Shown piece by piece: positions 2,577 through 18,047 of a DNA stretch of 64,000 bases. Both the position numbers and the translations under genes were made by a program. The notes under the pieces are model-generated. The model worked only from the letters and a program-made list of their open reading frames with translations, was not told the origin of the DNA and ran no database searches. The DNA is from Candidatus Heimdallarchaeota archaeon (GTDB lineage: Archaea; Asgardarchaeota; Heimdallarchaeia; JABLTI01), in the NCBI GenBank assembly GCA_018238155.1, contig JABCTZ010000032.1, positions 1 through 64,000 of the forward strand. Reading direction: 5' to 3'. Each line of letters begins with the position of its first letter. Position 1 is the first letter of the stretch.

Positions 2577-3272
2577 ATGAGTGATGATGAGAAACTGACA
2601 GGAAGAAAGGAAGAGCTTATCGCTCATTACAAACAAAGTGGTTACTTACAAGCTGAAAACGTTATCAGAGCTTTTAGAGCAGTACCTCGAGAGAAATTTA
2701 TTGGTCCAAATCCAAAACAATTTGCTTATCATGATCGTCCATTGTCTATTTTTTCAAATCAAACAATTTCAGCACCTCATATGGTAGCAATGATGGTAAG
2801 CAAGAAATGCTTGGATTTCAATGTTGGTGAAGTGTGCTTGGAAATTGGCGGTGGTTCAGGTTATCATGCTGCGGTTATTGCAGAAATCATTGCTCCTACG
2901 GGTTCCGACAAAACAAAATGGGGTCATATTTATACTGTTGAGATAGTTGAGAAATTAGTTGATTTTGCTCGAGAGAATTTGAAAGAAGCGGGTTATTCAG
3001 ATAGAGTTACCGTTATTCATGGGGATGGTTCTTTAGGTTATCCTGAGAAAGCTCCTTACGATAAAATTACTGTTGCTGCTGCAGCACCAGAAATTCCTCA
3101 ACCTCTTATAGTTCAATTGAAACCCGGAGGTCGGTTGGTAATTCCTGTAGGTAAAAAAGGCTTTTATCAAGAACTAATTATTGCAAAGAAATTAAAGAAT
3201 GGCACTATTTCAAAAAGCTCTATGTGTGGTGTTGCTTTTGTACCTTTGATAGGAGAACATGGTTTCAGTTAA
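2577..3272 (+). CDS. pcm: Protein-L-isoaspartate O-methyltransferase
   Basis: VPREKF, QTISAPHM, LEIGGGSGYHAA, GDGSLG, APYDKI, QLKPGGRLVIPVG, FVPL; start placed at the second ATG. Confidence 0.93.
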   Translation: MSDDEKLTGRKEELIAHYKQSGYLQAENVIRAFRAVPREKFIGPNPKQFAYHDRPLSIFSNQTISAPHMVAMMVSKKCLDFNVGEVCLEIGGGSGYHAAVIAEIIAPTGSDKTKWGHIYTVEIVEKLVDFARENLKEAGYSDRVTVIHGDGSLGYPEKAPYDKITVAAAAPEIPQPLIVQLKPGGRLVIPVGKKGFYQELIIAKKLKNGTISKSSMCGVAFVPLIGEHGFS

Positions 3273-6200
3273 GGTTGGCCAAAAAACTCTGTTAAACTTC
3301 TTTGGTTGTTTTCCTCTTGAGTGAAATATTCATCAATTGACTCTTTAAACAGTCGCAATCTTTGCTTCAAATAATCTGATAAGGCATATTGTGTTATCAA
3401 ATTGTATGTAGTATCATAATATTTTGTTACTGTTTTTTTGTGAACAGTAAGAACTAATTTTCCACCATTTTCACAAGCATTACATCTACCTGATAAAGGC
3501 AATCGTCGAAACTTTGTATTGCATTTTATACACCGGAATGTTTGTGAGCCAAAAGCACGCAAGCAACCGATCATATCTGGGAAGAAATGTTTGTTTATGA
3601 CTCTTTCAGCAACATCCTCCATATTAACAGCTCGAATAAGTTTAGCTACTTTTAATTGTGCTTCAAGTTTTTCAGACATTTTTCCAAAGCGAGAATATGA
3701 AGTAGAAGGTGGTCCTATACCAATATCTGTTGTTTCATGAGTGTAATGAAAATTCTCATACTGGTCTGGTGTTTCTAAACGATTTGCAATTAAATCAATA
3801 ATCTTTGATATTTTCTTTGCATCAATAAATTTGTATGATTGCTCAAAGAATTCTAGTGGATATCTTGTAATACAATCTACTGCATGAGATTCATCATCAA
3901 CCTCGAGAGGATTTAATACTAATCCTAAAGTTAAGGGTGCATCCATTGAACCACCTCGAGTGATTGGTAGAAATTTCTTTGAGAAATCTAAAAATCCTTC
4001 AAGCATTAATATTACTGCATCCTCATCTCCATCGCATTGATGAGTTAAAATATATTCGTTTACTAATACTGAGTGGTATTTTTCTGCGTTTAATGAATAA
4101 ACAAAATCAGTTTTTGATTTGACTATTTCTACGCTCTCTACCTTAAGCAATCTGTTGTTCATGAATAATTTTTGAGGGATTGTATTTTTGGTTTCAATAA
4201 AACTATTGAGTAGCTGCTGTTTCCTTTCAGAGGTGAGACCAATTTTGGAAGTGAAAGTTAGTATGTTCTCTCCTCTAATTGTTAACTTGAATTCAGTGTC
4301 TGGGTCTCTTCTTTGGTTGGTGTAATCTGAGAAAATTCCAAAACGTAGAAGCAGTAAATCAAAATCATTCAATAGTTTCTTACTAATTGAAGAACAAGCT
4401 ATCGTTTTGCTTTTTTGATCTACTCCTCCGTTACCACTAAAATACGCACTAATTAAAAATTTGATTTTATCCTTTGGCATTTTTAGAAGGAAAGAAGGAA
4501 TCGTTTTATTAGAAGAACTTGTTTGAAGTTGTAAAATATCCTTAAAAAACCTATAAACCACTCGACAAGAAATTGTAATTCTATTCGAATCAATATTGGA
4601 TTCAAATTCATTTCCAAAAACATTTCTAATTGAGGTTAGTATATCCTCACGTAAATCATCTTCATATACAGCGAGATCTACTTGGTAGCTCAATTTTTCA
4701 TCTTTTTTATAGAATCCTTCAGCAAGATAATAACCTATTAATTTCATCAAACTTTCATTGTAAGGAATAAATCTATTTATGAAACCATGTTCGGTCTTAA
4801 ATCCTAAAGAACATTTTGGGACATTTTGTAAGGTTAAACCGCTTATTTCGAGCAATCTCTCCAGAATATCTAGAGGTATAGAATCTCTTTCTTCATAATA
4901 GTTACAAAGTGTTTCTTTGTCTATGTTAAGCTTTTCAGATAGTTCCGTTAATCCAAATTTATCTACTATATCTTGTACAAAGGAATCAATTCCTCTTATC
5001 ATCAAATTCTCTTTAATATCTTGAAAATCCTCTTTACTGAATTCTTCAAGTAAATCAATTTCTTGAATGTCTTCATCCACGAAATCGAGAATTGGTAGAA
5101 CGAAAGAATCTCCATTTCGTATCTCAGATGCTCTTTTTTCATTTATTTTTCCATCTTCATAAATTAATACGGGATGATCGGCTGTAGTTGTAAAAGATCT
5201 GTTACTAATCAAATCGAATTTTATTAAATGATTTGGGGTTGGAGTTTTGATTACATCAAGAATATTTGTTACCACAACTTTTCCCTTTAAGCTATCAAAA
5301 GAATGCACTTTGATATTTCTTTTTGGTTGTTTTTTAATTTTAACCATTTTTTCTTCTGTTTCATTTTCAAATTCCTTTTCATATAGTTCTTTGATTTTTA
5401 TTCGTTTTACTTCACTTTCGATATCCACTAGAACTTCAGTATCTCCTGGAAAACAGTTACGTCTTTTTGCAGCATGCCAATAAGGATGTGCAAGGTTTCC
5501 TTTTACATTGGTAAACCCAATAACTCTACCAGTAATTCCTGATGAAGTATGTGGTGCCAATCCTATTACTAAGTGTCCAATCATATCGGTTATTTTTATT
5601 GCGTTATAAAATCTAGGCATCCCATAAACCGATTCCAGCATGTCATCAACGTATTTTGCTACTCTAAAAAGAAAATTACCATTGTCAATGTTAAGAACGA
5701 CATCTTGTGTTTTTAACTCAATTATTTGATTTTCATCTTTTATTGGATCGCCATTTTTATCACTAACATACCCTAGCTCTAGTAATCTTTCTATTGTAAT
5801 ATTGATTTCTTTGGGTTTGAAATGCATTAAGGGTATATCTGTTGAATCAAATCGTATTGTTCCATCTTTATAGACATTCAAATCGTGTCGTGCTCTTAGA
5901 AATCCTTTCTCTAGAATTTCAGGTAGGCGCTCTTTGTTCATCAGTTTTTTAACGCCTTTTGTTCCTGAAGGTATTGACCCCCCAAGATTTTTCTTCACTC
6001 GAGTTATTTCAGCGCTTAGATCTAAGAAACGAGTTGAAAAGCAAGCAGTGCGTTTCCTGCAATTTCCGCAAAATTCCTCGTCTGTTTCTTTCCCACAACT
6101 TGGACAACTTCTTAACAACTTTGTTTGCACTTTACAACCCGGACAAGTAACTAAATGGGTTATTTTGTTACACATTGGACATTCTCGTTGTGTAATTGTA

Positions 6201-8179
6201 ACTTCAATTAGCTTCTTCTTTCCTGCCTCTAAAATATAACGAGCATTACCTTTTCCTTCCATTTCAACAGGAAACAATGAATGAATAGGAGGATTCATTT
6301 TTCGTTCTTTTGCTTTTTCTGGTCTCCCCATTCTCGCTCCTGAATAGATTGGTATCTTAAATTTTATTTCAAATGGAACAATATATTCGAAAGGGGGAGT
6401 TGCCGTTCTTTCGATAGTTTCCGGATTTATTTTTGCATTGTGAATTTGCATACAGTGATCAATAATTAAATTATGCTCATCAATAACAATGCAACCTTTT
6501 TTCACTTTATGAGGTAAACCTATTCTTTCAAATATACGTTTTGAATTGAATTCTTTCTTTAAAACCAAGGCATCTCTATTCTTGGTGATCGTTTCCACTG
6601 ATTTTTTATCTCTTATCCAATTTTTGAGGATATCTGCTCTAAGTTCGAAAAATTCATCAAAAGAGATATCGTGCCAGGCATAAGTGTAGAATGGATGAAG
6701 TGGAATCAATAATTCATAACTGAAATTCAATGCTTCTTCTTGCGTTGGTCTAGTTGTTATAGGATTTAGAAGAAATTGATTTAATCGTTCAATTGATACA
6801 TTACATTTTTTAGCTGCGATTGTAACATCATTGTTACATCTTGATTTTATTCTAGATTCTAGATGAAGGATCCACCATTCCTCAACATAACCCGAGGGAA
6901 TTAATGGATGATTGTTTTCAAGAAACTCTCCAAATCCAACGAGAAGATCTCCCAAAAACAGAATCTCTTGTACTTGCTTCTCATATTTGAGAGCTTTTTC
7001 ATAAGTATCTAACCGAATTACTTCACCGTTCTTCAATAAGACAGTTGGTCCATCGATAGAATCCACAGGCATTACTACGCTGCCTTTACCTGGACGTTCT
7101 GTTCTAATATGGGTTCCTGGAGCTAAAAATTCCAAAACGATTTGCATTGTTGCCGGATGAATACCTATACCTGCTAGTCCGGTATTCCGAGAATGACCAT
7201 ATCTTATTCTGAACCCACCTGGTTTCGATGGGTGTGAGAAAATTGGTCTGCCAGCGATTACATCTTTAATATATCCATACGATGGTTGTGTTTTGGACAT
7301 CGCATCATCTTTATCGTCAGAAGCCTTTGTTACCTTAAGTGATTTTAACCAATCCCATCCCTTTAAGCCAACAGTATTAACTGTTTTCAAAATCTTCATT
7401 GCTCTTCCAATTATTCCATCATTTAGAACGAGGCAAGCACCTCCTCTCAAGCTGTTTGTTTCAATTCTTGGGAGATCACGAAAAGCAGATACTTCATCAG
7501 GGTTTGTTTGTTCACCTGTTACTTCTACTGGTAAATTTTTCACTGCAAATTCAATTTGTTCTGCTGTTGATGGACTTTGCAAATGCATTACTCTATTATA
7601 GAGATCAATTTCTTCTACAAATCGTTTCATTTCTTTTCCAGTTGCTTTATACTTGGAAAGACCTAACTCTTTGCGAACATAATCTGTAATTAGCACTGTT
7701 AATGCTGCTTCCGTTCCACCTGCAGCTCTAATTGGTCCTGCGAAATAAATAGCTAAATATCTACTGTTGTCTTCATTGCGTTTTATTTTAACTTTAGCAA
7801 TTCCTTCAAGAGGTGCTGCTGTTACTCCTTCTGTTAAAATCGCTAGTGCAGCTCGTATTGCCATGTCAGCCTTTACTTCTTCTGGTTGATTTCCGTTGAA
7901 TCTTCCAGAAGCAATTTCTTGAGCAATTTTAAAAGCAACATTTTCTCTATCCATTGATTCTCCTAAACTGGTGATTCGTGCACCAATACCTTTGATACCC
8001 ATTAAACCTTCAACTTTTCCTGCAACATCCTTTGCTAAATGTATTTCAGGCTCAAGTTCAGGGTCTAAACCTTTCTTTCGAGCTTCTTTTGCAACTGCAT
8101 ATAAGCGATTTACTTCATCTTCCAAAGCTTGAAAGTAAGCTTTCATTTCATCAGTTGCAATTAATTCCAATTTACACAC
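3269..8179 (-). CDS. polC: DNA polymerase D large subunit DP2, intein-containing
   Basis: LTEGVTAAPLEGI, AGPIRAAGGT, GRPEKAKERKM, KDGTIRFD, GLAPHTS, HAAKRRN...CDGDED, RGGSMDAP, C-terminal CxxC zinc module. Confidence 0.98.
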   Translation of the reverse strand: MCKLELIATDEMKAYFQALEDEVNRLYAVAKEARKKGLDPELEPEIHLAKDVAGKVEGLMGIKGIGARITSLGESMDRENVAFKIAQEIASGRFNGNQPEEVKADMAIRAALAILTEGVTAAPLEGIAKVKIKRNEDNSRYLAIYFAGPIRAAGGTEAALTVLITDYVRKELGLSKYKATGKEMKRFVEEIDLYNRVMHLQSPSTAEQIEFAVKNLPVEVTGEQTNPDEVSAFRDLPRIETNSLRGGACLVLNDGIIGRAMKILKTVNTVGLKGWDWLKSLKVTKASDDKDDAMSKTQPSYGYIKDVIAGRPIFSHPSKPGGFRIRYGHSRNTGLAGIGIHPATMQIVLEFLAPGTHIRTERPGKGSVVMPVDSIDGPTVLLKNGEVIRLDTYEKALKYEKQVQEILFLGDLLVGFGEFLENNHPLIPSGYVEEWWILHLESRIKSRCNNDVTIAAKKCNVSIERLNQFLLNPITTRPTQEEALNFSYELLIPLHPFYTYAWHDISFDEFFELRADILKNWIRDKKSVETITKNRDALVLKKEFNSKRIFERIGLPHKVKKGCIVIDEHNLIIDHCMQIHNAKINPETIERTATPPFEYIVPFEIKFKIPIYSGARMGRPEKAKERKMNPPIHSLFPVEMEGKGNARYILEAGKKKLIEVTITQRECPMCNKITHLVTCPGCKVQTKLLRSCPSCGKETDEEFCGNCRKRTACFSTRFLDLSAEITRVKKNLGGSIPSGTKGVKKLMNKERLPEILEKGFLRARHDLNVYKDGTIRFDSTDIPLMHFKPKEINITIERLLELGYVSDKNGDPIKDENQIIELKTQDVVLNIDNGNFLFRVAKYVDDMLESVYGMPRFYNAIKITDMIGHLVIGLAPHTSSGITGRVIGFTNVKGNLAHPYWHAAKRRNCFPGDTEVLVDIESEVKRIKIKELYEKEFENETEEKMVKIKKQPKRNIKVHSFDSLKGKVVVTNILDVIKTPTPNHLIKFDLISNRSFTTTADHPVLIYEDGKINEKRASEIRNGDSFVLPILDFVDEDIQEIDLLEEFSKEDFQDIKENLMIRGIDSFVQDIVDKFGLTELSEKLNIDKETLCNYYEERDSIPLDILERLLEISGLTLQNVPKCSLGFKTEHGFINRFIPYNESLMKLIGYYLAEGFYKKDEKLSYQVDLAVYEDDLREDILTSIRNVFGNEFESNIDSNRITISCRVVYRFFKDILQLQTSSSNKTIPSFLLKMPKDKIKFLISAYFSGNGGVDQKSKTIACSSISKKLLNDFDLLLLRFGIFSDYTNQRRDPDTEFKLTIRGENILTFTSKIGLTSERKQQLLNSFIETKNTIPQKLFMNNRLLKVESVEIVKSKTDFVYSLNAEKYHSVLVNEYILTHQCDGDEDAVILMLEGFLDFSKKFLPITRGGSMDAPLTLGLVLNPLEVDDESHAVDCITRYPLEFFEQSYKFIDAKKISKIIDLIANRLETPDQYENFHYTHETTDIGIGPPSTSYSRFGKMSEKLEAQLKVAKLIRAVNMEDVAERVINKHFFPDMIGCLRAFGSQTFRCIKCNTKFRRLPLSGRCNACENGGKLVLTVHKKTVTKYYDTTYNLITQYALSDYLKQRLRLFKESIDEYFTQEENNQRSLTEFFGQP
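4037..5455 (-). mobile_element. Intein (473 aa) with LAGLIDADG endonuclease domain, inserted in the DP2 catalytic motif
   Basis: Splits RRN|CDGDED; begins CFPGDTEV, block B TTTADHPV, ends ILTHQ followed by Cys+1; LAGLIDADG helices LIGYYLAEG and LISAYFSGNG. Confidence 0.95.
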
Positions 8180-8291
8180 TCAACAATTTTTCGTTCAGAA
8201 TATATCCTATCACAATGGATAGGCATTTTGGATAGAGAGAGGTTGCTTTAATAATAATGGTACTATTTCCAACAGTACCATTGTATTATAA

Positions 8292-9875
8292 TTATTTCAC
8301 AAGAATTGCCGCTACTCCTTCGATTATTCCATTCGAAACTATAGATGGAATAAAGCCGAATAGTATTAGCGCCAACGCTAGTAGAATTCCAATAAATGTC
8401 GTTATTGAAATATCATTATTTACATCTGATATTCCTGTCGGAATTTTCTGTGATTTATTTAATATTATGGATTTTAGTACGAACATATTACATATTAGTA
8501 ATAATAAAACCACCACTCCAATTAGAATTCCAAATATTAGATAATCGGTTTTTAGGAGTGAATAAATGATCATAAACGTAGTCACTCCACCAAAAGTTGG
8601 AAATATACCTATATTTGACAATAAACTAACTGTGAAGATGAAACCTGAAATTGGTAGTTCTTTTCCTACACCTCTCAATTGGTTTAAATCGTAGCTTCCT
8701 CCATTAGCACTGGCAAATTTCTCTATACAAATGAAGCTTAGAAAAATTGTTGCAACAACATTTATCATATGCAAGTAACCATAACCAAGACAATCCTGTA
8801 ACAATTTTACTTCTGCTAGTCCCTCAATAATTACTAGTCCATTAAATGATAAAGTTGTCAACACAATTCCAATATTGACAAATGTTGTATAGACAATAAT
8901 TTTCATTAGATTGCTATCTTCTTTTTTGAGTAACTGTCCTATAATGAGGAGAATGCCCTCAAATGCTGTTACAAGCCCTATTCCTGCAATAATAATGGAG
9001 TAATTTGTGCCTGGAAATATTGTTGGATTAAAGATGTTATTTAGTATCCTAAAAATTGAGAATACTGCGGTTATACTTATGAAACCAGTTGTTATTATTT
9101 TCATTCCAGTACGGGCGCTTTGGATCGTTGAATTTGTCCAGATGTTTAGCAAAAATAGATTAGCAAAAATACCTAAACTAATGATTACTAAAGCAATAAT
9201 AAAATAGATTACTAAATTCAGATTTTGCAGTAAATCAGCATTAAATAATTTATTTTCAAGTATGTATGCAAAATTCAAGCTACCAAATATTCCATAAGTT
9301 AGAACAACTGCTAAGAGGAGGAGAGCGATTGCAAAACCAATTGTCATATAAGCTTTTACTCCACCTACTCGTAAGTCTTCCTTTTTTCTGTCGAAAGTAA
9401 TTAATAATATTAATGACAAACCAATAATAACCCAAGAAAGAAATAAAGTAAAGAAATCATACGTTAGTAATACTCCATTTATTCCAGAAATAAGCAAGAG
9501 GAAAAAGCTAACATAGATTGGTGCATTTTGTTGTCCTCTTATTTTCGAGGTTTCATAGATTAACACAAATATCAATATGATATTTAAGAATAGCAATAAC
9601 CAAGAAGATACGCCATCGCTTCTAAATTGCACTCCTGTTGGAGGAGCATATTCAACACCAAGTGATGTATCATATACACCATAGATAATTTTTGTTGTGC
9701 TTGCTTCTACTCGAGAAATAATTGCACCAAGAACAGCTACTATTACAATAATTCCTGCAACAGCAATTTCCCCGGAAAAACTCTTCAGCCATTTTCGTAA
9801 ACCGAAAATAATCATTCCAAGTAAGAAGGGTAATAATATTGGTATTAAGAGAATTATATTTACTGCAACCGCCAT
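8292..9875 (-). CDS. NuoM/MrpD-like antiporter-type membrane subunit (divergent)
   Basis: Many TM helices; GVLLTYDFFTLFLSW, YGIFGSLNF, LRGVGKELP, SNIGIFPTFGG, FGFIPS match the MrpD/NuoM scaffold. Confidence 0.8.
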   Translation of the reverse strand: MAVAVNIILLIPILLPFLLGMIIFGLRKWLKSFSGEIAVAGIIVIVAVLGAIISRVEASTTKIIYGVYDTSLGVEYAPPTGVQFRSDGVSSWLLLFLNIILIFVLIYETSKIRGQQNAPIYVSFFLLLISGINGVLLTYDFFTLFLSWVIIGLSLILLITFDRKKEDLRVGGVKAYMTIGFAIALLLLAVVLTYGIFGSLNFAYILENKLFNADLLQNLNLVIYFIIALVIISLGIFANLFLLNIWTNSTIQSARTGMKIITTGFISITAVFSIFRILNNIFNPTIFPGTNYSIIIAGIGLVTAFEGILLIIGQLLKKEDSNLMKIIVYTTFVNIGIVLTTLSFNGLVIIEGLAEVKLLQDCLGYGYLHMINVVATIFLSFICIEKFASANGGSYDLNQLRGVGKELPISGFIFTVSLLSNIGIFPTFGGVTTFMIIYSLLKTDYLIFGILIGVVVLLLLICNMFVLKSIILNKSQKIPTGISDVNNDISITTFIGILLALALILFGFIPSIVSNGIIEGVAAILVK

Positions 9876-11789
9876 TTAAATTCCTCCTCTAAATAGAATT
9901 GATACTAAGATGACGAAGAATAGAACCGCCCACAGTATGATTCCTGCAGGAGCTTTCAATCTTGTCCAAGTAAAATAGTTGCTTAGAAATTTGAATGGTT
10001 TCAAAATTAGATAATTATTGATTTTTTCTAAATATAGCCCCTGTTCTATTACTGATTTCACCATTTTTGTTCCTCTGAAGTTTCTTATTGGAGTAAAGAT
10101 TTTTCCGATTCCATCTCGGTAAGCGAAGAACGTCCCTGCAAGAACTAAGGGTACTATTACAAGCATTATCATTGATATAACCCAATTGCCGAAAATCGGA
10201 AAATCATACCCTAAATCTAGATTTTTATTTAAAAATAATTTGAAAAATCCCGGGGAAGAAGTACCAATAATGATCAATATGAATCCCGCAAAGCAAGACC
10301 ATAATAGAACTAAACCTTCTGAAATCATTGACAGGATATCTATTGGTCTAATTGTGTACTCTTCATTCACGCCACCAAATAATATTTTCATTAATGACTT
10401 TCCTACTGCAAAAACAAGTACTATTGTTGCAATCATTGCTAATATCATGAGAGCCATGCTTGATGGAACAAGGCTTGTTCGTAATGATTCAAAGATCATA
10501 TCACGACTAAAGTAAGTGCTAAATGGAAACATTCCAACATAGCTTAAAATGGCAATAAAACCGAATATTTGTAAGATTGGAAATTGCTTTCCCAATCCGC
10601 CTATTCTTGAAATTTGCTTTGTTCGTAATGATTTGATTACCATTCCAAAGATAATAGTTAATGCAATGCTAGCTGCAGATCCAAGAATAAGATGATAATA
10701 TGTTGCTAGATACCCTAATTCATTTGCTGCGCTTAATCCTAAAAATGTTAAACTCAATTGGAAGAGTGAAGTACCAGTCATTATTCTATTAATATTCTTT
10801 GATGAAAAAATCACCACTAAACAGGTGACCATCGTTGCTATCGCGGTCCACCCAATGATCATAAATGGTGCACTATTGAATAATTCAGTTTCAAAGTGCA
10901 CTTCTAACCCTTTGTTTGAAAACATAGGAAAGAAAGCGCATATGATATAGAGACCTATATTACCCAAAGTGACTGAAATAAGAAATGAAGAAATCGGTAG
11001 TGGTGTTTTTGCCAAATCAGAATCAATTTCTTCTCCGGACAAGGGCCAAAGAAGTAATGGAAATTGTGCTGACTTAATGAGCGCACCAAGCACTATGAAG
11101 ATTTCAATTAGCAATCTGGTATTAGTACTCGTACCGCCAATAATTGTGTTGGGCGGTCGCATCCATGCAATCATTAACCTTTCATAAGTCAAAGTGTCGT
11201 ATGCTTTTCCTATTAAACCAATTCCAATTATTAATAGAATATCTCCAATGAAGTTAAATATGAAAAATCTTATAGCTGCTTTTCCAACTTTTTTCCCTTC
11301 TTCTCCTGATTTATTACTCCAATGTGAAATTAGGAAGAACCCTCCTAAACTTGCGATTGCAAAACCTGAAAACATCCACAATAGGTTATTTGAAAAGATT
11401 GCAAAAAGCATTCCACCTTGTGTTATTAGAAAGAAAAACCAATATTTTGTTTGATTTCTATCCCCTGACAAGTAATTGATAGAATAAAGACCTAGGAAAG
11501 CACTTAGGGCATTTATTAAACAAGTAAATCCAACCGATAATTCATTAATATGTATCCCCAAGTAAATATTCGGTAACCAAAGGAAATATTGATTTTGATG
11601 TAAGTGCATTTGCCATATTAGTAGCAGAGAAATTATTGATGTTGGAATCAAAATAACAATTACCAGAATCCAAGATCTTGTTTTCCCTTCTGCAACATAC
11701 CTATCCTCTATTTGTGAAAGTCCTAATGCTAATATTGCTCCAATAAATGGTAGTAATATTGTTACCCAAGCAAGTGCAATACCATTCAT
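9876..11789 (-). CDS. NuoL/MrpA-like antiporter-type membrane subunit (divergent)
   Basis: YSINYL, SNNLLWMF, IGDIL, IKSAQFPL, PLPISS, IGGLGKQFP, FSRDMI match NuoL. Confidence 0.88.
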   Translation of the reverse strand: MNGIALAWVTILLPFIGAILALGLSQIEDRYVAEGKTRSWILVIVILIPTSIISLLLIWQMHLHQNQYFLWLPNIYLGIHINELSVGFTCLINALSAFLGLYSINYLSGDRNQTKYWFFFLITQGGMLFAIFSNNLLWMFSGFAIASLGGFFLISHWSNKSGEEGKKVGKAAIRFFIFNFIGDILLIIGIGLIGKAYDTLTYERLMIAWMRPPNTIIGGTSTNTRLLIEIFIVLGALIKSAQFPLLLWPLSGEEIDSDLAKTPLPISSFLISVTLGNIGLYIICAFFPMFSNKGLEVHFETELFNSAPFMIIGWTAIATMVTCLVVIFSSKNINRIMTGTSLFQLSLTFLGLSAANELGYLATYYHLILGSAASIALTIIFGMVIKSLRTKQISRIGGLGKQFPILQIFGFIAILSYVGMFPFSTYFSRDMIFESLRTSLVPSSMALMILAMIATIVLVFAVGKSLMKILFGGVNEEYTIRPIDILSMISEGLVLLWSCFAGFILIIIGTSSPGFFKLFLNKNLDLGYDFPIFGNWVISMIMLVIVPLVLAGTFFAYRDGIGKIFTPIRNFRGTKMVKSVIEQGLYLEKINNYLILKPFKFLSNYFTWTRLKAPAGIILWAVLFFVILVSILFRGGI

Positions 11790-11792
11790 TTT

Positions 11793-12173
11793 TCAAACTT
11801 CCTCCTCAGTTAGAGTATTAGCTTCTTTGGTCTTATTTCCTTCTTGAATACTGAAATCGAAATCAAGCAGAGTTGATCCTTCATTAACCTCTCTCAATTT
11901 CTTGTCTAGACCAATCCCGATTATAACAAAAATTGCGCTCACGATTATAATAAAAAATGATAGTGTTTGTGCAAGTGGGTCTGAAAAAGTAATACTTTGA
12001 TTATTTGCTGCGCCAAAGGATAACAACAATAAATTTACTGCCATTAAAAGAATAACAATACCAAATACTACCTTTAGGAATTTTTTTGCTGTAATCAAAG
12101 AATAGATTCCAATACAAAAAAGTATCATTACTGCTAATATGGTATATGGGAATGGTGTAGTCCAATCTAACAC
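11793..12173 (-). CDS. NuoK/MrpC-like small membrane subunit
   Basis: 3 TM; LFCIGIYSLI, AVNLLLLSFG, DPLAQ; position in operon. Confidence 0.82.
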   Translation of the reverse strand: MLDWTTPFPYTILAVMILFCIGIYSLITAKKFLKVVFGIVILLMAVNLLLLSFGAANNQSITFSDPLAQTLSFFIIIVSAIFVIIGIGLDKKLREVNEGSTLLDFDFSIQEGNKTKEANTLTEEEV

Positions 12174-12571
12174 TAATAATATCTCCTTTCTTGTTGAGTT
12201 TGTCTTTCAGGTTGTTTTATTACTTCAAAATTGACAAGATAATAGGAACCCATTATTGCTAAAGTGAGTATTATTAAGATTAGGAGTAAATCATATACTC
12301 TAAATGTCCAAAGATTTCTTCCTATTTCTTGCCCTAAAATTGAATAATTTACTTCTGTCTGATTTGGTCCTGAATAAAAGGAATCTTGATTTATCTCAAG
12401 AAAAACCAAGAAAAAGACCATTCCAAATAATCCTGCGGTGATAATACCTATGCCACGTACAAACCACTGATTTAATCGTTCTATTTTTGCTTCAGTCATT
12501 ATTTCTCTCTCCCAGCTTAAAATCTCCTCATATCTTTTTGTACTGTACGTTTGCTTCTCAGCTTGGACCAA
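12173..12571 (-). CDS. NuoJ C-terminal-like membrane subunit
   Basis: 2 TM; IGRNLWTFRVYDLLLILIIL resembles the NuoJ/FpoJ C-terminal half; directly upstream of the K-like gene. Confidence 0.55.
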   Translation of the reverse strand: MVQAEKQTYSTKRYEEILSWEREIMTEAKIERLNQWFVRGIGIITAGLFGMVFFLVFLEINQDSFYSGPNQTEVNYSILGQEIGRNLWTFRVYDLLLILIILTLAIMGSYYLVNFEVIKQPERQTQQERRYY

Positions 12572-12933
12572 TCAATAACAGAAAGACAAATGAAAATAAT
12601 CACCAAGATTGCTAAGATAAAAGGCCACAAATCAGCAAGAACTAAAACTTCAAACAGACCGTATAGTGGAAATGCAAGTAAAATAATAATCATTTCAAAC
12701 ACAAGTATGTAAACGGTGTATTGATATAATTTATTTAAATGTTCATCTGAAATCTTTGTTGTTATTTTTCGATATTCCTGTGGTTTTTCTTCTACACCTT
12801 CTAGTTTTTGTTTAATTACTTTTCCAGTTATTGAAATAATTATTGCTGTTATAATCATAGCAGCTGCAAAACCAAAGGCCAATGCAACAATAATCGGCAA
12901 ATCTTGCAATTGTAAAGACATTATTCTTCCCAC
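12517..12933 (-). CDS. NuoA-like membrane subunit (divergent)
   Basis: 3 TM; YQYTVYILVFEMIIILL aligns to the NuoA FDVE helix; first gene of the operon; the ATG at 12921 may be the real start. Confidence 0.6.
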   Translation of the reverse strand: MGRIMSLQLQDLPIIVALAFGFAAAMIITAIIISITGKVIKQKLEGVEEKPQEYRKITTKISDEHLNKLYQYTVYILVFEMIIILLAFPLYGLFEVLVLADLWPFILAILVIIFICLSVIDWSKLRSKRTVQKDMRRF

Positions 12934-13150
12934 TTGTTATTTCTCTATTATGCATTAGTCTACTCTATTTATTAGCTAATTGGTTCCTTTTGAAGTAAAA
13001 TTTGCTGTAAATTTATTCCTTATTACAAAAGCTTTGATTAGAAGTTAACATTTGTTAATATCTGGTTTGTATAAATGTAATGTTGTAATAAAAAAATAAG
13101 CTCTTTTGAAAAAAAAGAAATCAAAACATCAAATAGTCTGAGGAATCAAA

Positions 13151-13888
13151 CTATATTTGATGCATCCATAATAAACTACGATAAACGTTTACAATTCGTT
13201 TTTTGAGTTCTACTGAAGCTTTTGATTCATTCATCTTTTCTAAGCCTTTGAGAACTTTACGACAATAATCACATTCTTCTCCATTCTCAACTTTCTTACT
13301 ATCTATATCAAGAATTACTTCAGATTCATAGTAATCTTTGAGTGATTGAGAAATACCAATTATGTCATAATCTCTTGGATCAACGAATGTTTCAGCATAC
13401 CAACTGATGCGTAAATCTTTCTTATGAACAAATAATTTCATAGTAGCTATTGCAATCTCCATAAGAGCTAAATCACCGACAACAACAACTGTTTTACCTG
13501 TCATTATTGGTTTCATGACATATTCAAGATTATTACCAAAAGTTCTGAGCATTAATGTAATACTTGCTCTTGCTTCAGTTTTTGCTCCAGGAGAACCTGC
13601 TGCTGCTGCCGCTGTTGAACCTGCTTGTGGCGTTGCTGCTGCCGCAGCTCTTGCTGATGCTTCTTCTCTACTGCTTCTTGCAATAGTAGAGGAACGATGT
13701 TGCCTCAAAGCTAAATTCTTATCTAAAAGTAAGGTAATGACATGATCATCATGAAGGTATGATACTTGCCATAGTCCACCTACTTGCGTTTTTAAATCGT
13801 CTACATAAATTGGTATGAAAATATCCTTTCCACACCCTTTACAAGTGAGCGATATTTCTTTTAATGGTACCCTGGCAGATGACAACAA
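13151..13888 (-). CDS. Hypothetical protein: CxxC...HxxH putative Zn domain, Ala-rich linker, possible cDENN-like domain
   Basis: CKGC...HDDH...LDKNLALR; linker AAAAATPQAGSTAAAAAGSPG; IMTGKTVVVVGD alpha/beta segment. Confidence 0.55.
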   Translation of the reverse strand: MLSSARVPLKEISLTCKGCGKDIFIPIYVDDLKTQVGGLWQVSYLHDDHVITLLLDKNLALRQHRSSTIARSSREEASARAAAAATPQAGSTAAAAAGSPGAKTEARASITLMLRTFGNNLEYVMKPIMTGKTVVVVGDLALMEIAIATMKLFVHKKDLRISWYAETFVDPRDYDIIGISQSLKDYYESEVILDIDSKKVENGEECDYCRKVLKGLEKMNESKASVELKKRIVNVYRSLLWMHQI

Positions 13889-13980
13889 TTTGCAACTCCA
13901 ACTAATTTACTTTTTTATTATAATAGATTGTTTTTTATTATGATATAATAATACTTGCTTATATTATTTTAAAGTTTTAT

Positions 13981-14006
13981 TTCAAATTTATTTGAATAAA
14001 TTTGAA
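13981..14006. promoter_or_regulatory. Perfect inverted repeat (12-bp arms, 2-nt spacer), candidate operator
   Basis: TTCAAATTTATT-TG-AATAAATTTGAA in the intergenic region between divergent genes. Confidence 0.45.
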
Positions 14007-14230
14007 TAGACTATATTGGTATCTTTGATAGTTGAAAGATAATAATTTTTTCCTAATATCCAAGTATTATTTACTATCTCTTTCATAAAGATAAAGCTTC
14101 TTTTTACGGCAAAAAACCGTTTAAAATATATACCCAAAACCAAACGCTAAAAAATTACTATTACCAATAATCACATATTCACCCAAAAGATTTTAAAATA
14201 AGTTTACTCGCAAAAGAATAATGCAATTCC

Positions 14231-14335
14231 GCCGGATTAGCTCAGTGGTAGAGCTCTCGGCTGTTAGAGGTTAACATTAACAGTCGACCTGCAGAAACCG
14301 GGTGGCCGCAGGTTCAAATCCTGCATCCGGCGCCA
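14231..14335 (+). tRNA. tRNA-Asn(GTT) with a 30-nt intron at 37/38 (14267-14296) and encoded CCA
   Basis: Acceptor GCCGGAT/ATCCGGC, G73, CCA; D arm AGCTCAGTGGTAGAGC; anticodon GTT at 14263-14265; T arm GCAGGTTCAAATCCTGC; bulge-helix-bulge CTGT/GCAG; TATA-like TTTTAAAATA at 14191-14200. Confidence 0.97.
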
Positions 14336-14372
14336 TCTTTTTATTTTTTCTCTTTAAAAGAGCCTGATTAAA

Positions 14373-14630
14373 TTAAAAATCTTCATCAATTTCATGTAGG
14401 ATGTCTAGTGCGTCTTTTAATCGATTATTGATATAGAAACTTAATTCACCATAATCCTCATTCTTCTGCATTCTAGAAATGTCTATTGCTGCATTTTCTA
14501 ACTGTCTATGTGCTGTTAACATGATTTCTTCCCGTTCTTTTTCCTCCTCTATTGTAGAGAATTTTGGCCCAACAAATAATGAACCATTCCCTACTGCTTT
14601 TACGAAGAAGAAATTGAAATATTCTGTCAT
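14373..14630 (-). CDS. Small hypothetical protein
   Basis: ATG start, 85 aa, acidic helical composition; no recognised motif. Confidence 0.5.
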   Translation of the reverse strand: MTEYFNFFFVKAVGNGSLFVGPKFSTIEEEKEREEIMLTAHRQLENAAIDISRMQKNEDYGELSFYINNRLKDALDILHEIDEDF

Positions 14631-14767
14631 TAAGTCAACACCGAGATTTTTTTTACTTTTCTCCTCTATAAAAACTATCTTCTTGAATATTCATAAAGAG
14701 CGATAGTCTTAAAGAATCCGCTAAAACACACTTTATCTATCGAATTATATTTTGCGGTTTGATTTAG

Positions 14768-15820
14768 ATGGCAGTTGTAAATGATGAAAATACTATCCAT
14801 CACTCTAAAAGAGAAGAAGAGATTCTTGAACAATTGAAGCTTGTAGAAGGTTCTAACCTTTGGACAATCACTTTAAGACGAATGAGACAAGATCAATTAG
14901 GTCTGTTTGGTTTGGGGTTAGTGCTTGGTTTATTTGTGGTAGCTATTGTTGCTTTTACACTACAAATGTATGATTCTTGGTTTGGACTTGCTAACCCAAC
15001 TGCTGATCCATGGGATGTACATAATTACTTTATTGAAATATGGATTCCAGGAACAGAAAAATACTTGCGTTTAATTGCACATCCTAAGCATATCATCGCA
15101 GGTGATGAAGGGCTTGTACCATGTATACAATACCCATTTGGAACTGATTTACTTGGTCATGATATCTTCTCACGGATGGTTTTTGGTACACCATTGTCTT
15201 TAGCATTGGGTGTTACAGGACAGTTACTAACAAGTTTTCTTGGTGCTGTTATTGGCGCTGTTTCGGGTTATTATGGCGGATTATTTGATGAAGTAGTTCA
15301 AAGAGTGAATGAAGTTGTTATGGGTCTTCCTGATTTTATTCTGTTTATATTTGCTGTCGCTCTTTTTGGAGAGGTATCCACCTTATTTGATGGAGGTTAT
15401 TACATTGTTGTGTTAACTATCCTTTCATTACTTGGTTGGGGTGGTACAAGTTTAATTGTACGAAGTACTGTACTAAGCTTAAAAGCAAGAGACTTTGTTG
15501 AAGCAGAAAGAGCTCTTGGAGCAAAAGATAGCAGAATTATATTCAAACATATTCTACCTAATGCATTGTCTCCACTTATCATCATTACAACCCTTGGTAT
15601 TGCTGGTACTATAATGAGTATTACAGCACTAGCTTTCTTTGGTTTAGGCGATCCTACTGCTGTTTCATGGGGTGATGATTTGGCCGCATATCGAGATCAA
15701 TTACTAAGTTATTGGTGGATGCCTACATTCCCTGCCATGATGATTTTTATTACAATGCTTGGGTTCAATCTAATGGGTGATGCGTTACGTGATGCCCTGG
15801 ATCCAAAGCTGAAAAGTTAG
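14768..15820 (+). CDS. Peptide ABC transporter permease (OppC/DppC family), stand-alone
   Basis: FGTDLLGHDIFSR, GAVSGYYGG, EAA loop FVEAERALGA, HILPNAL, FNLMGDALRDALDP. Confidence 0.92.
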   Translation: MAVVNDENTIHHSKREEEILEQLKLVEGSNLWTITLRRMRQDQLGLFGLGLVLGLFVVAIVAFTLQMYDSWFGLANPTADPWDVHNYFIEIWIPGTEKYLRLIAHPKHIIAGDEGLVPCIQYPFGTDLLGHDIFSRMVFGTPLSLALGVTGQLLTSFLGAVIGAVSGYYGGLFDEVVQRVNEVVMGLPDFILFIFAVALFGEVSTLFDGGYYIVVLTILSLLGWGGTSLIVRSTVLSLKARDFVEAERALGAKDSRIIFKHILPNALSPLIIITTLGIAGTIMSITALAFFGLGDPTAVSWGDDLAAYRDQLLSYWWMPTFPAMMIFITMLGFNLMGDALRDALDPKLKS

Positions 15821-15890
15821 ATTTTTATTTATTGGATAGGAAAAAATCTATCCAAATTTTTCCTTTTTTTATCTTCTTTACTGATTACCT

Positions 15891-16664
15891 TTATGTGAGT
15901 TTCACTACTTTCTGTCCGTTGAGTAACTCCTCGACTTCGTTGATGGAAGTAGGCACAGCTGATATTTTATTGACTTTACTACAAAATTCAATATCTTTTT
16001 TAAATCCTAATTTAACTAATTTTTGCCCATGTTTTGTTTTCAATAATATTTGGAATAGCGATTGCTTTTCAAGCAATTTCTCAAAATGCTCTAGTTCAGC
16101 ATCAATTTCTTTTGACAAAGATAATCCTGCTTTCTTGAATTCTTGTGCTATAATTAATCCGCCAATTTGATCTTCAGTAATTTCATTAGTTATTATTGTC
16201 CCTTCACTGTATGCGGGAATTATCACTATTGGAAAACTGTTTGTAGATAATGATTTGCAAATTTCCATAACTTTAGTAACCACTGCTTGAGCATTGATTG
16301 GTGAACCAATAATAATCACTCTTGATCCAATAGCTTCAACTGCTCTTTTTGATCCTGTTGATGATGTAAATGCTGCGCAATTATTTGATATCTCTTCTTG
16401 GTTGTTCATTTCAACAGGACTATTTCCATAATCAAATCCATTGAGCATTTCACAACCTCGTTCACCCATTAATAAACTATCAAATTCTTCTGCTGCTAAA
16501 CGTGTGTCCTCAACTTCTAATGCAACATAAATTGTTGTTATTCCTTTACTCATTGCCACGGGTATCGTTGTACTTGCTCTGAGAGTATCAACAATGATTG
16601 CAATACCTCCTTTGCTAGCTGCTAATTTAGAACCTTCATAATTTCCAAGAAGAACAATCGTCAT
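15891..16664 (-). CDS. comB: 2-phosphosulfolactate phosphatase family protein
   Basis: VDTLRASTTI, GERG, GFDYGNSP, TSSTGS, ED motif, GFKKDIEFC. Confidence 0.85.
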   Translation of the reverse strand: MTIVLLGNYEGSKLAASKGGIAIIVDTLRASTTIPVAMSKGITTIYVALEVEDTRLAAEEFDSLLMGERGCEMLNGFDYGNSPVEMNNQEEISNNCAAFTSSTGSKRAVEAIGSRVIIIGSPINAQAVVTKVMEICKSLSTNSFPIVIIPAYSEGTIITNEITEDQIGGLIIAQEFKKAGLSLSKEIDAELEHFEKLLEKQSLFQILLKTKHGQKLVKLGFKKDIEFCSKVNKISAVPTSINEVEELLNGQKVVKLT

Positions 16665-16946
16665 TTCTTTTCACATCTCTACAAAAATAAGATAACCTTA
16701 CTTTTAAGTGTAGCTTTCAGCCATTTTCTGCAAAAATAATTCCTCTAAATAGAAATAATGAAAAAGGGTAAATTCTATACTATCATTAAATTAGTTAAAT
16801 GAGCATGATATTGAGCTGCCGAAGTGAAATAGTTTCTATTTCTAATCGGTGTTATTATAAATCTAAAACAAACAAAAGAATCCGCCAAAAACGAAGACTG
16901 ACAGTACTTATGTATTTGGGATCCTATTATTAGGAGGACTATTAAC

Positions 16947-18047
16947 TTGACCTCGAAAGACGATATTCGACAATTTTTATTAGACAAGAAAGAATCAGAG
17001 ATACTTGAATTACTAAAGAAAGATAAGACGAATGTTCAAAAATTTATAATGGACATTGCAAGAAAAGATTCAGAATGGAAGTTTCGTAGAGATGCCGTTA
17101 AAATTTTAGGCAAAGCAGAAATTTCAGAATCAATTGAACTATTAAAAGAAATATTATTGAAAGATCATCTTACAGTTTTGAGAAAAACTGCTGCAAAAGC
17201 ATTGGGTAACCTCGGTGATGAAAAAGGAATACCTCCTTTACTTTCAGCTTTGCAAACATCAAAAGATCCTGCAATAATTGCTGAAGTATCATGTGCCTTA
17301 GGAGCACTCAAAGCTACTGATGCAGTAATTATTTTGGTAAGCATGTTACAATTAAATCCTGATGGTGAAATTAGAGAGCATGCCGCAGAAGCATTGGGCT
17401 TAATTGGTGATACAAAAGGTATTGACATATTGCTTGAAGCTTTAAATAATGACAAAGAGGATTGGGTAAGAGGGCGTGCTGCAGAAGCTCTAGGTTTAAT
17501 TGGTGATACAAAGGTTGTTCCTGACTTAGTCAAAGCACTTGAAGATGACCAAGGAATCGGCGTCTCAGTTCGCGTTGCAACTGCTTTAGGTAGATTAAAA
17601 GATAAAAGCGCAATTGAACCCTTGAAAGTTTATTTAGAAAAGGGTCAAAAGGTTGAAACGCGTAGAGCAATTGTTTATGCTTTAGGAGAAATTGGTGATA
17701 AGAAAGCTGCTGGTATATTTCTTAATTTATTAGAAAATGATGAAGATGCAACAATACGTTATTGGGCTTGCATTTCTCTTGGATTTATGCAATACAAGCG
17801 AGCTGCAAAGGTAATTGAGAGAATTCTATTAGAAGATGAAAGTGTTCGAGTTAGGCGTACTGCTGCCCTCTCTCTTGGTCAATTAGAACTCAAAACGAAG
17901 AAAGCTATTAACACACTTCTTACTGCTTCGAAAGAAGATAAAGATGAAGAGGTTCGAGTTAAGGCAAAAGAAACTATTAAGAAACTAGCAAAAACACATG
18001 GGTACAAAAATCAAACTGAGATGTTAAAAGATTTGGGCATAAAATAA
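16947..18047 (+). CDS. HEAT (PBS lyase-like) repeat protein
   Basis: Repeated (V/I)RxxAAxALGxIGD units of about 32 aa. Confidence 0.9.
   Translation: MTSKDDIRQFLLDKKESEILELLKKDKTNVQKFIMDIARKDSEWKFRRDAVKILGKAEISESIELLKEILLKDHLTVLRKTAAKALGNLGDEKGIPPLLSALQTSKDPAIIAEVSCALGALKATDAVIILVSMLQLNPDGEIREHAAEALGLIGDTKGIDILLEALNNDKEDWVRGRAAEALGLIGDTKVVPDLVKALEDDQGIGVSVRVATALGRLKDKSAIEPLKVYLEKGQKVETRRAIVYALGEIGDKKAAGIFLNLLENDEDATIRYWACISLGFMQYKRAAKVIERILLEDESVRVRRTAALSLGQLELKTKKAINTLLTASKEDKDEEVRVKAKETIKKLAKTHGYKNQTEMLKDLGIK

Follow-up and report, generated by a model that had tools for sequence, protein, structure and literature searches.

Complex I, the membrane-bound hydrogenase (MBH), the Mrp complexes, and their relatives are a textbook case of modular evolution in bioenergetics. 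In their antiporter-like subunits, a Glu in transmembrane helix (TM) 5, a Lys in TM7, and a Lys or Glu in TM12 make up the central hydrophilic axis; to our knowledge, every described complex I, MBH, or Mrp relative keeps this Glu/Lys axis. In solved Mrp complexes, MrpD bears part of the transport path. In cyanobacterial NDH-1, including the CO2-uptake form NDH-1MS, only the distal D/F pair is duplicated, the charged residues are kept, and the redox-active core is shared. Heimdallarchaeia are the archaeal group closest to eukaryotes, and their energy metabolism is actively debated. We describe a cluster of five genes in one of them, Candidatus Heimdallarchaeota archaeon, that encodes a degenerate paralog of a complex-I-like membrane arm. 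The complex-I-like group-4 [NiFe]-hydrogenases of Heimdallarchaeia have been described, in an account that does not mention the degenerate set (bioRxiv 10.1101/2024.07.04.601786), and we found no description of this paralog set in the literature.

The window is the whole stretch of DNA analyzed, the first 64 kb (64,000 nucleotides, nt) of contig C41 in a genome (G000) of 4.08 Mb and 33% GC. An earlier note, made from the letters of the window, had pointed to five tightly packed or overlapping, uninterrupted genes. They are indeed there: five co-directional open reading frames (ORFs) on the minus strand at 8292-12933, abutting or overlapping, and intact. Primes mark the members of the degenerate set (A', J', K', L', and M' here; D', H', and C' elsewhere in the genome). 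The five genes, in the order in which they are read, are as follows.

A', 12517-12933, minus strand: probable ATG start at 12921; 134-138 amino acids (aa), 3 TM; tentatively NuoA-like.
J', 12173-12571, minus strand: probable ATG start at 12499, giving 108 aa; 2 TM; resembles the C-terminal half of NuoJ (J2).
K', 11793-12173, minus strand: NuoK/MrpC-like, 3 TM.
L', 9876-11789, minus strand: 637 aa; NuoL/ND5-type antiporter-like subunit with a C-terminal helix and a terminal TM.
M', 8292-9875, minus strand: 527 aa; MrpD/MbhH/NuoM-like antiporter-like subunit without the charged axis.

The starts of A' (12921) and J' (12499) were set by comparison with orthologs; those of J' are 109 aa long.

We propose that A'-M' is a lineage-specific, fast-evolving membrane-arm paralog maintained by selection, and that it joins H', D', C', and perhaps a further protein, X, in a separate complex-I-like particle that probably lacks redox activity. 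Judging from sequence comparison, we put the probability of this reading at roughly 50%. The five-protein module would probably not be a stand-alone unit.

The same genome encodes a canonical counterpart on another contig.

Canonical operon A-B-C-D-H-I-J1-J2-K-L-M-N, G000:C15:261000-271500 (L008 ORFs 7021-17508): without E, F, and G; NuoJ is split into two genes.

Its NuoD keeps the NiFe motifs RxCGxC and DPCxxC (as RVCGICSHIH and DPCFSCEDR), and since these ligand motifs are retained, the operon encodes a complex-I-like group-4 [NiFe]-hydrogenase, a type already known from Heimdallarchaeia. The primed subunits are ~25-30% identical to the canonical ones. The earlier note had raised the idea of a repurposed complex, naming an uncoupled or neutral-solute transporter, a scaffold, or a regulatory paralog of a canonical arm as candidates; the second copy on C15 identifies the A'-M' cluster as a repurposed paralog. 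L' has its nearest outgroup in the NuoL of an A-B-CD-H-I-J-J-K-L-M operon labeled Hodarchaeales, and the two share a 7-residue insertion after TM7. In a quick maximum-likelihood tree, L' falls within the NuoL/MrpA clade and M' beside the M of the Hodarchaeales-labeled operon; both placements are tentative because the stems are ~2 substitutions per site long.

The distribution of the paralog is narrow. We searched Asgard archaea with one genome per species, where f1 is the GTDB family that holds G000 (12 genomes) and g1 is its 11-genome genus. A search for the L' family matched all 12 f1 genomes (G000 and the remaining 11/11); the 388 Asgard genomes searched outside f1 have no member. Its members are 38-84% identical and all ~638 aa long, and the family is isolated, the next match being at 27% identity. 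One canonical K is present in each f1 genome, and K' accompanies it throughout, except that G083 and G087 returned a single K match. Gene order is conserved as well: a 245-aa gene (up245), A'J'K'L'M', and the gene for DNA polymerase D (PolD) follow one another, and the cluster always adjoins PolD.

Within this family, the primed genes change quickly under constraint. Relative to G000, they are 84-90% identical in the nearest species and 27-56% in the others; in the same genomes, PolD is 74-90% identical and canonical A, J1, and K are 69-97% identical. The primed genes evolve two to three times faster than their canonical counterparts. Nei-Gojobori ratios of nonsynonymous to synonymous substitution (dN/dS) for K', L', M', and A' are 0.11-0.23 in unsaturated pairs, compared with 0.09-0.14 in neighboring genes; the values for short genes in the closest genome pair are noisy. 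The ratios are alike before and after the extra residue losses in the lineage of G000 and G086. Many invariant residues are left, and lengths are conserved. On these measures, the primed genes are fast-evolving yet constrained by purifying selection. Genes that are intact wherever they are assembled in the 12 f1 genomes, with conserved synteny and dN/dS of 0.11-0.23, are not decaying. The earlier note had reached the same view and had named a survey of orthologous Asgard operons, with dN/dS, as one way to check it; the family-wide presence, the absence from 388 other genomes, ratios far below 1, and the lack of frequent disruption bear it out.

The family identities of K', L', and M' are secure on profile matches. 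K' scores 46.8 bits against PF00420, above the gathering cut-off of 26.1, and aligns to the canonical NuoK of this lineage with an hhalign probability of 97.6%. L' scores 89.5 bits against PF00361 (cut-off 21.5) and 25.1 bits against the N-terminal domain PF00662 (cut-off 24.5). Its top NCBIfam match is NuoL, below the equivalog cut-offs (159 bits versus 556 for NF005141 and 150 versus 407.5 for TIGR01974). An AlphaFold2 (AF2) model of L' has a predicted template-modeling (TM) score of 0.82 and superposes on full-length NuoL/ND5 chains with TM-scores of 0.73-0.78 over ~650 columns; the match includes the C-terminal helix and the last TM, but the predicted local distance difference test (pLDDT) score is low there. 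M' scores 53.4 bits against PF00361 (cut-off 21.5). Its top NCBIfam match is MrpD (90 bits versus an equivalog cut-off of 542), and in the PDB its family profile comes closest to MbhH (6CFW) and MrpD (6Z16, 7QRU). The M' sequence family comprises 8 representative clusters among 1.84 billion. Overall, the five-gene set misses the NCBIfam equivalog cut-offs three- to six-fold.

The two small subunits are harder to place. J' scores 19 bits against PF00499, below the cut-off of 33.2, and covers only profile positions 69-146; five of the eight J' orthologs match this profile, and J' aligns to the family's own canonical J2 with an hhalign E of 4.6e-4 and a probability of 33%. A' has no match in a Pfam (including PF00507) and NCBIfam profile search. 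It aligns to a NuoA profile in the TM2 region with an hhalign E of 7.9e-4 and a probability of 25%, compared with E of 0.046-0.41 for unrelated small TM profiles. Its orthologs share an invariant WPF and a basic C-terminal tail. With regard to the Asp79/Glu81 motif of NuoA TM2, an acidic residue at the Asp79 position occurs only in G000 and G086. As for the nuoA-J-K-L-M order read by the earlier note, K, L, and M stand, and A and J are plausible from weak matches; the "FEMI" motif that it had singled out in A' is present, but its Glu is not conserved among orthologs. We also considered A' as the N-terminal half of NuoJ. Two A' orthologs match PF00499, but in its C-terminal part, and hhalign against J1 stays at background, so this assignment was rejected. 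A J1-like ORF (NuoJ TM1-3, including Glu55) was found neither in the cluster nor as an orphan in the genome.

Residue states were read from MAFFT alignments to E. coli NuoA/J/K/L/M/N (NC_000913) and to the genome's own canonical paralogs, with a family-profile alignment of M' to MbhH (6CFW_H) as a cross-check. The numbering of NuoD, J, K, and A was checked in a published account, in which Glu36 lies in NuoK TM2 (PMC8357420). All the substitutions that the earlier note had listed for L', M', and K' are present in G000. Its broader statement, that most proton-pumping residues are lost, holds fully for M' and not for the ancestral states of L' and K'.

M' has lost the axis altogether. Throughout the 13 family members, V, I, A, or T replaces the TM5 Glu, F or L the TM7 Lys, and an uncharged residue the TM12 Lys/Glu. 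A family-specific Glu, E306, is present in 12 of the 13, in a predicted helix.

L' is less degraded. Among 28 orthologs (E. coli NuoL numbering), the TM7 Lys (K229) and D178 are kept in every one, D400 in 27, a K or R at TM12 position 399 in 25, and H or Q at position 334 in 27; H254, H338, and K342 are absent from all 28. The TM5 Glu (E144) is kept in 22/28 and is Ala in G000 and its closest relatives. In K', position 36 is Glu in 6/9 orthologs, whereas G000 and G086 have Val there and G091 has Asn. At position 72, K' carries a hydrophobic residue, and so does the canonical K of this lineage, which likewise lacks Glu72. The losses of K Glu72 and of the TM8 Lys are not diagnostic, since they extend to the canonical K, M, and N of this genome. 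Thus, L' ancestrally carries the TM5 Glu/TM7 Lys pair, D178, D400, and a basic TM12 residue, and K' ancestrally carries Glu36. By the pattern among orthologs, the losses of the L' TM5 Glu and the K' Glu36 are confined to the sub-lineage of G000 and are recent events.

Candidate partners of the cluster were detected by whole-genome Pfam scans, at two further loci.

D'-H'-X, G000:C3:35749-38771 (L063:7747-10772), minus strand: a NuoD-like gene (P0275), a NuoH-like gene, and X (P0277/P0278), a protein without a family.
C', C41:115022-115444, minus strand: a 140-aa orphan NuoC-like gene; 23.7 bits against PF00329.

H' is a second, highly divergent NuoH-like gene (55 bits versus 261 for canonical NuoH) that retains many conserved NuoH charges, residues of the TM1-2 loop among them. 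D' has neither the RxCGxC nor the DPCxxC motif, and it also lacks residues equivalent to H224 and Y273 of E. coli NuoD. H' and X are present in 12/12 f1 genomes. D' is present in all 11 g1 genomes and in no other Asgard family; in the twelfth f1 genome, a contig break lies just upstream of H'. Within the class, C' is confined to f1, where 11 of the 12 genomes have it. D', H', and C' have the identity profile and dN/dS range of A'-M', and the subunit content of the three primed loci is complementary, with no overlap.

X is a ~210-aa polytopic membrane protein of 6 helices that is 57-91% identical across genomes. It has no Pfam family, its atlas matches are uncharacterized archaeal clusters only, and its hhalign scores against A, J1, J2, K, H, and L/M/N profiles are at background; its AF2 model has a pLDDT of 62, too low for a search by fold. 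In one subclade, a convergent 344-aa gene sits between D' and H'. The D' ortholog of G083 (L073, G083:C128, 1477-2439) is 320 aa long rather than ~380, ending ~60 residues early at a flagged TAA, either by true truncation or by an assembly error in a metagenome-assembled genome. C' is followed in 9 of the 10 loci checked by an 859-aa protein (P0316; locus G000:C41:112261-115444, L111:2261-5444, minus strand) whose N-terminus is extremely acidic and which also has a poly-Lys stretch, 5-6 TM helices, and, at its C-terminus, a large helical domain; we found no Pfam or atlas relatives of P0316.

The earlier note had reported a window without H, B, C, D, I, or N. Whole-genome Pfam scans confirm this for H, B, C, D, and N; NuoI was not among the families scanned. 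An orphan NuoB (PF01058) was not found genome-wide, even at E up to 10, and the PF00361 scan of the genome found no orphan N. Matches to PF01058 are limited to the canonical operon and two cytosolic hydrogenase clusters. One of these, at C41:102293, was considered as B' and rejected: it is part of an ordinary cytosolic hydrogenase cluster that encodes NiFe large, FAD/NAD, and 4Fe-4S subunits. The two cytosolic [NiFe]-hydrogenase clusters lie at G000:C41:100321-104379 (L064:4321-8379) and G000:C39:94558-96933; that on C41 encodes 4Fe-4S, FAD/NAD(P)-binding, small, and large subunits in a group-3 sulfhydrogenase-type arrangement. In another genome, a different nuo-type cluster with a fused 166-aa NuoJ-like gene (G089:C98:1-2600; L038/L062/L096) has a NuoK only 30% identical to f1 canonical K, and is either a third complex type or contamination.

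Complementary loci, a shared narrow distribution, and a common rate signature together make a second, separate complex-I-like assembly likely. Under this model, A', the C-terminal half of J, K', L', and M' would derive from the membrane arm of the archaeon's complex-I-like group-4 hydrogenase. The particle would contain no iron-sulfur (FeS) subunits and no NiFe or quinone site, and so could not be a redox-driven pump. M' would act as an uncharged structural spacer, and the hydrophilic axis from the H'/K' end to L' would be interrupted there. If ions move at all, they would then do so only through L', with its ancestral TM5 Glu/TM7 Lys pair, D178, and TM12 K/R-D pair; L', which has the one plausible ion site besides remnants in H' and K', may provide a passive or secondary path for cations or protons. 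Since purifying selection persists in the G000 sub-lineage after the loss of the L' TM5 Glu and the K' Glu36, the function is probably structural or ligand-related rather than canonical proton pumping.

Several points weigh against such a particle. Physical assembly, which requires binding among the products of three loci, is something that we infer, as is the loss of pumping. The primed loci are never adjacent in any genome examined, and the upstream regions of A' and D' share no motif. The profile matches behind the assignments of J' to the C-terminal half of NuoJ and of A' to NuoA are weak. Any B', I', and N' could have diverged beyond detection, or the canonical ones could be shared. By its residues, L' in most species retains enough for an active antiporter half, and E306 of M' might compensate for the axis loss. 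X evolves more slowly and may be unrelated.

The model can be extended, tentatively and with rather less confidence, to a complete "pseudo-complex I": a single particle under purifying selection with at least eight subunits (A', C', D', H', J', K', L', M', and perhaps X), without FeS clusters, a NiFe/quinone site, or a continuous proton axis, and with a non-bioenergetic role. Examples of such a role would be a membrane scaffold, or the handling of a lipid or another ligand in the D'/H' cavity. If true, this would be a pseudoenzyme version of an entire respiratory complex.

The five genes also look like one transcription unit, as suggested by their head-to-tail arrangement and by two flanking elements.

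Promoter-like motif AACCAATTAG(C/A)TAATAAATA, 12966-12985, minus strand: ~45-55 nt upstream of the A' start.
Hairpin of 9 bp, AATGGTACT ... AGTACCATT, 8256-8282, minus strand: 10 nt past the M' stop codon; read from the sequence.

The motif, which we take as a promoter, is kept upstream of A' in 7 of 8 orthologous loci where the coding regions are only ~35% identical, and the hairpin is a possible end of the unit. The cluster is flanked by the 245-aa gene, which has no known family, and by an intein-containing gene for PolD DP2. The former (13151-13888, minus strand) contains a linker that is Ala-rich and GC-rich, and CxxC motifs stand close to either end. This gene lies directly upstream of A' in some family genomes and ~3 kb off in others. 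We considered it as a peripheral subunit and regard it as an unrelated neighbor: it has no family match, is 79-91% identical across genomes, and in some is separated from A'. The intein of the PolD large subunit DP2 (3269-8179, minus strand) holds a LAGLIDADG domain; the orthologs of G090 and G082 are ~1166 aa and without an intein, and the other orthologs have one.

Such a tight unit, with its own conserved upstream motif and a hairpin after M', would also suit a stand-alone Mrp-like cation/proton antiporter or channel, in which L' is the sole active subunit, M' is a scaffold, and the D', H', and C' loci are unrelated relics or serve another function. The residues kept by L' (K229, D178, D400, K/R399, and mostly the TM5 Glu) are consistent with this, and in NCBIfam and the PDB, M' comes nearest to MrpD and MbhH. 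The genome has no further PF00361 genes, and hence no canonical MrpA/D. We nonetheless consider this explanation unlikely. The cluster lacks MrpB/E/F/G and the C-terminal domain of MrpA, and M' lacks every residue of an axis to which MrpD contributes. In G000, even L' is without the TM5 Glu, yet remains under purifying selection, and it would have to be coincidence that D', H', and C' match the cluster in distribution and rate signature.

A second alternative follows the example of the cyanobacterial NDH-1 variants, in which NdhD/NdhF paralogs are swapped. Here, the primed subunits would form an isoform of the C15-encoded hydrogenase, replacing their counterparts, sharing its NuoB, NuoI, NuoN, and J1, and rendering it differently coupled or uncoupled. 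The subunits that lack a primed copy (B, I, N, and J1) coincide exactly with those that such an isoform would need to share, the canonical and primed sets co-occur in f1 genomes, and H' retains many NuoH charges, including those of the TM1-2 loop. The state of D' argues against this: it has neither NiFe ligands nor the quinone-site His/Tyr, so that an FeS chain from shared B and I would end at no catalytic site. Furthermore, at ~25-30% identity it would be difficult to maintain interfaces with unchanged canonical B, I, N, and J1, and the primed genes evolve two to three times faster than canonical ones. The isoform appears improbable, even more so than the Mrp-like antiporter.

A slowly decaying, functionless duplicate, left intact by chance or because truncated membrane proteins are toxic and weakly selected against, would account for the very fast amino-acid divergence relative to neighbors and canonical paralogs, the progressive loss of functional residues with further losses in the G000/G086 lineage, and the truncated D' of G083, but is very hard to reconcile with five genes intact wherever assembled in 12 genomes diverged to 27-56% identity, with dN/dS far under 1 that is alike before and after the extra losses, and with many invariant residues and conserved lengths.

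A separate, selected paralog particle thus remains our preferred reading, and it has implications beyond this lineage. A paralog set has long been kept, to ~30% identity, while the axis, the metal site, and the FeS subunits were lost. It amounts to a natural experiment that asks which architectural parts are needed for something besides redox-driven pumping. M' may be a natural insulating antiporter-like subunit, and could test models of long-range coupling along the membrane arm. All members of the set now carry either the annotation "hypothetical" or a generic "proton-conducting transporter" label; a metabolic reconstruction based on counts of PF00361 or NuoD matches may therefore put the number of functional complexes too high.

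Comparison with known systems places the primed set near several of them. Relative to the Mrp complex (MrpABCDEFG) and the MBH membrane module, it has the same combination of one L/MrpA-type, one MrpD-type, and one NuoK/MrpC-like subunit. In contrast, the cluster lacks the MbhD/MbhE domains at the MrpA C-terminus as well as MrpB, E, F, and G: the five ORFs have no match to PF13244, PF20501, PF04039, PF01899, PF04066, or PF03334, a search that for the MrpE/F/G families did not extend to the rest of the genome. Moreover, L' fits full-length NuoL/ND5 better than MrpA, and the MrpD-like M' is stripped of all transport-axis residues.

The energy-converting hydrogenase-related (Ehr) complexes offer a different parallel. 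They are considered to link a redox reaction in the cytoplasm with charge translocation via conserved antiporter-like subunits (PMC6349859). As in these complexes, the genomes that encode antiporter-like subunits also encode a large subunit related to group-4 hydrogenases but devoid of Ni/Fe ligands (D'); unlike them, the primed set has no NuoB-type FeS subunit that we could find, its genes are at three loci, and its antiporter-like subunits are degenerate. The cyanobacterial NDH-1 isoforms resemble it in retaining L/M-type paralogs beside a canonical set for a specialized, non-standard function. The two differ in extent and outcome: eight subunit types are duplicated here, and both catalytic and pumping residues are lost.

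A further likeness is to the membrane arm of complex I and of the Heimdallarchaeia group-4 hydrogenase. The cluster shares with it a NuoK, a NuoL-type subunit with PF00662, a C-terminal helix, and a terminal TM, and a second antiporter-like subunit, and it keeps the gene order ..J-K-L-M. It departs from this arm in M', which has no TM5 Glu, TM7 Lys, or TM12 Lys/Glu, and in L', which has no H254, H338, or K342. In addition, the primed set has no N or J1 and no detected NuoB-type FeS subunit, its D' is devoid of NiFe or quinone residues, and its H-, D-, and C-like partners are encoded apart.

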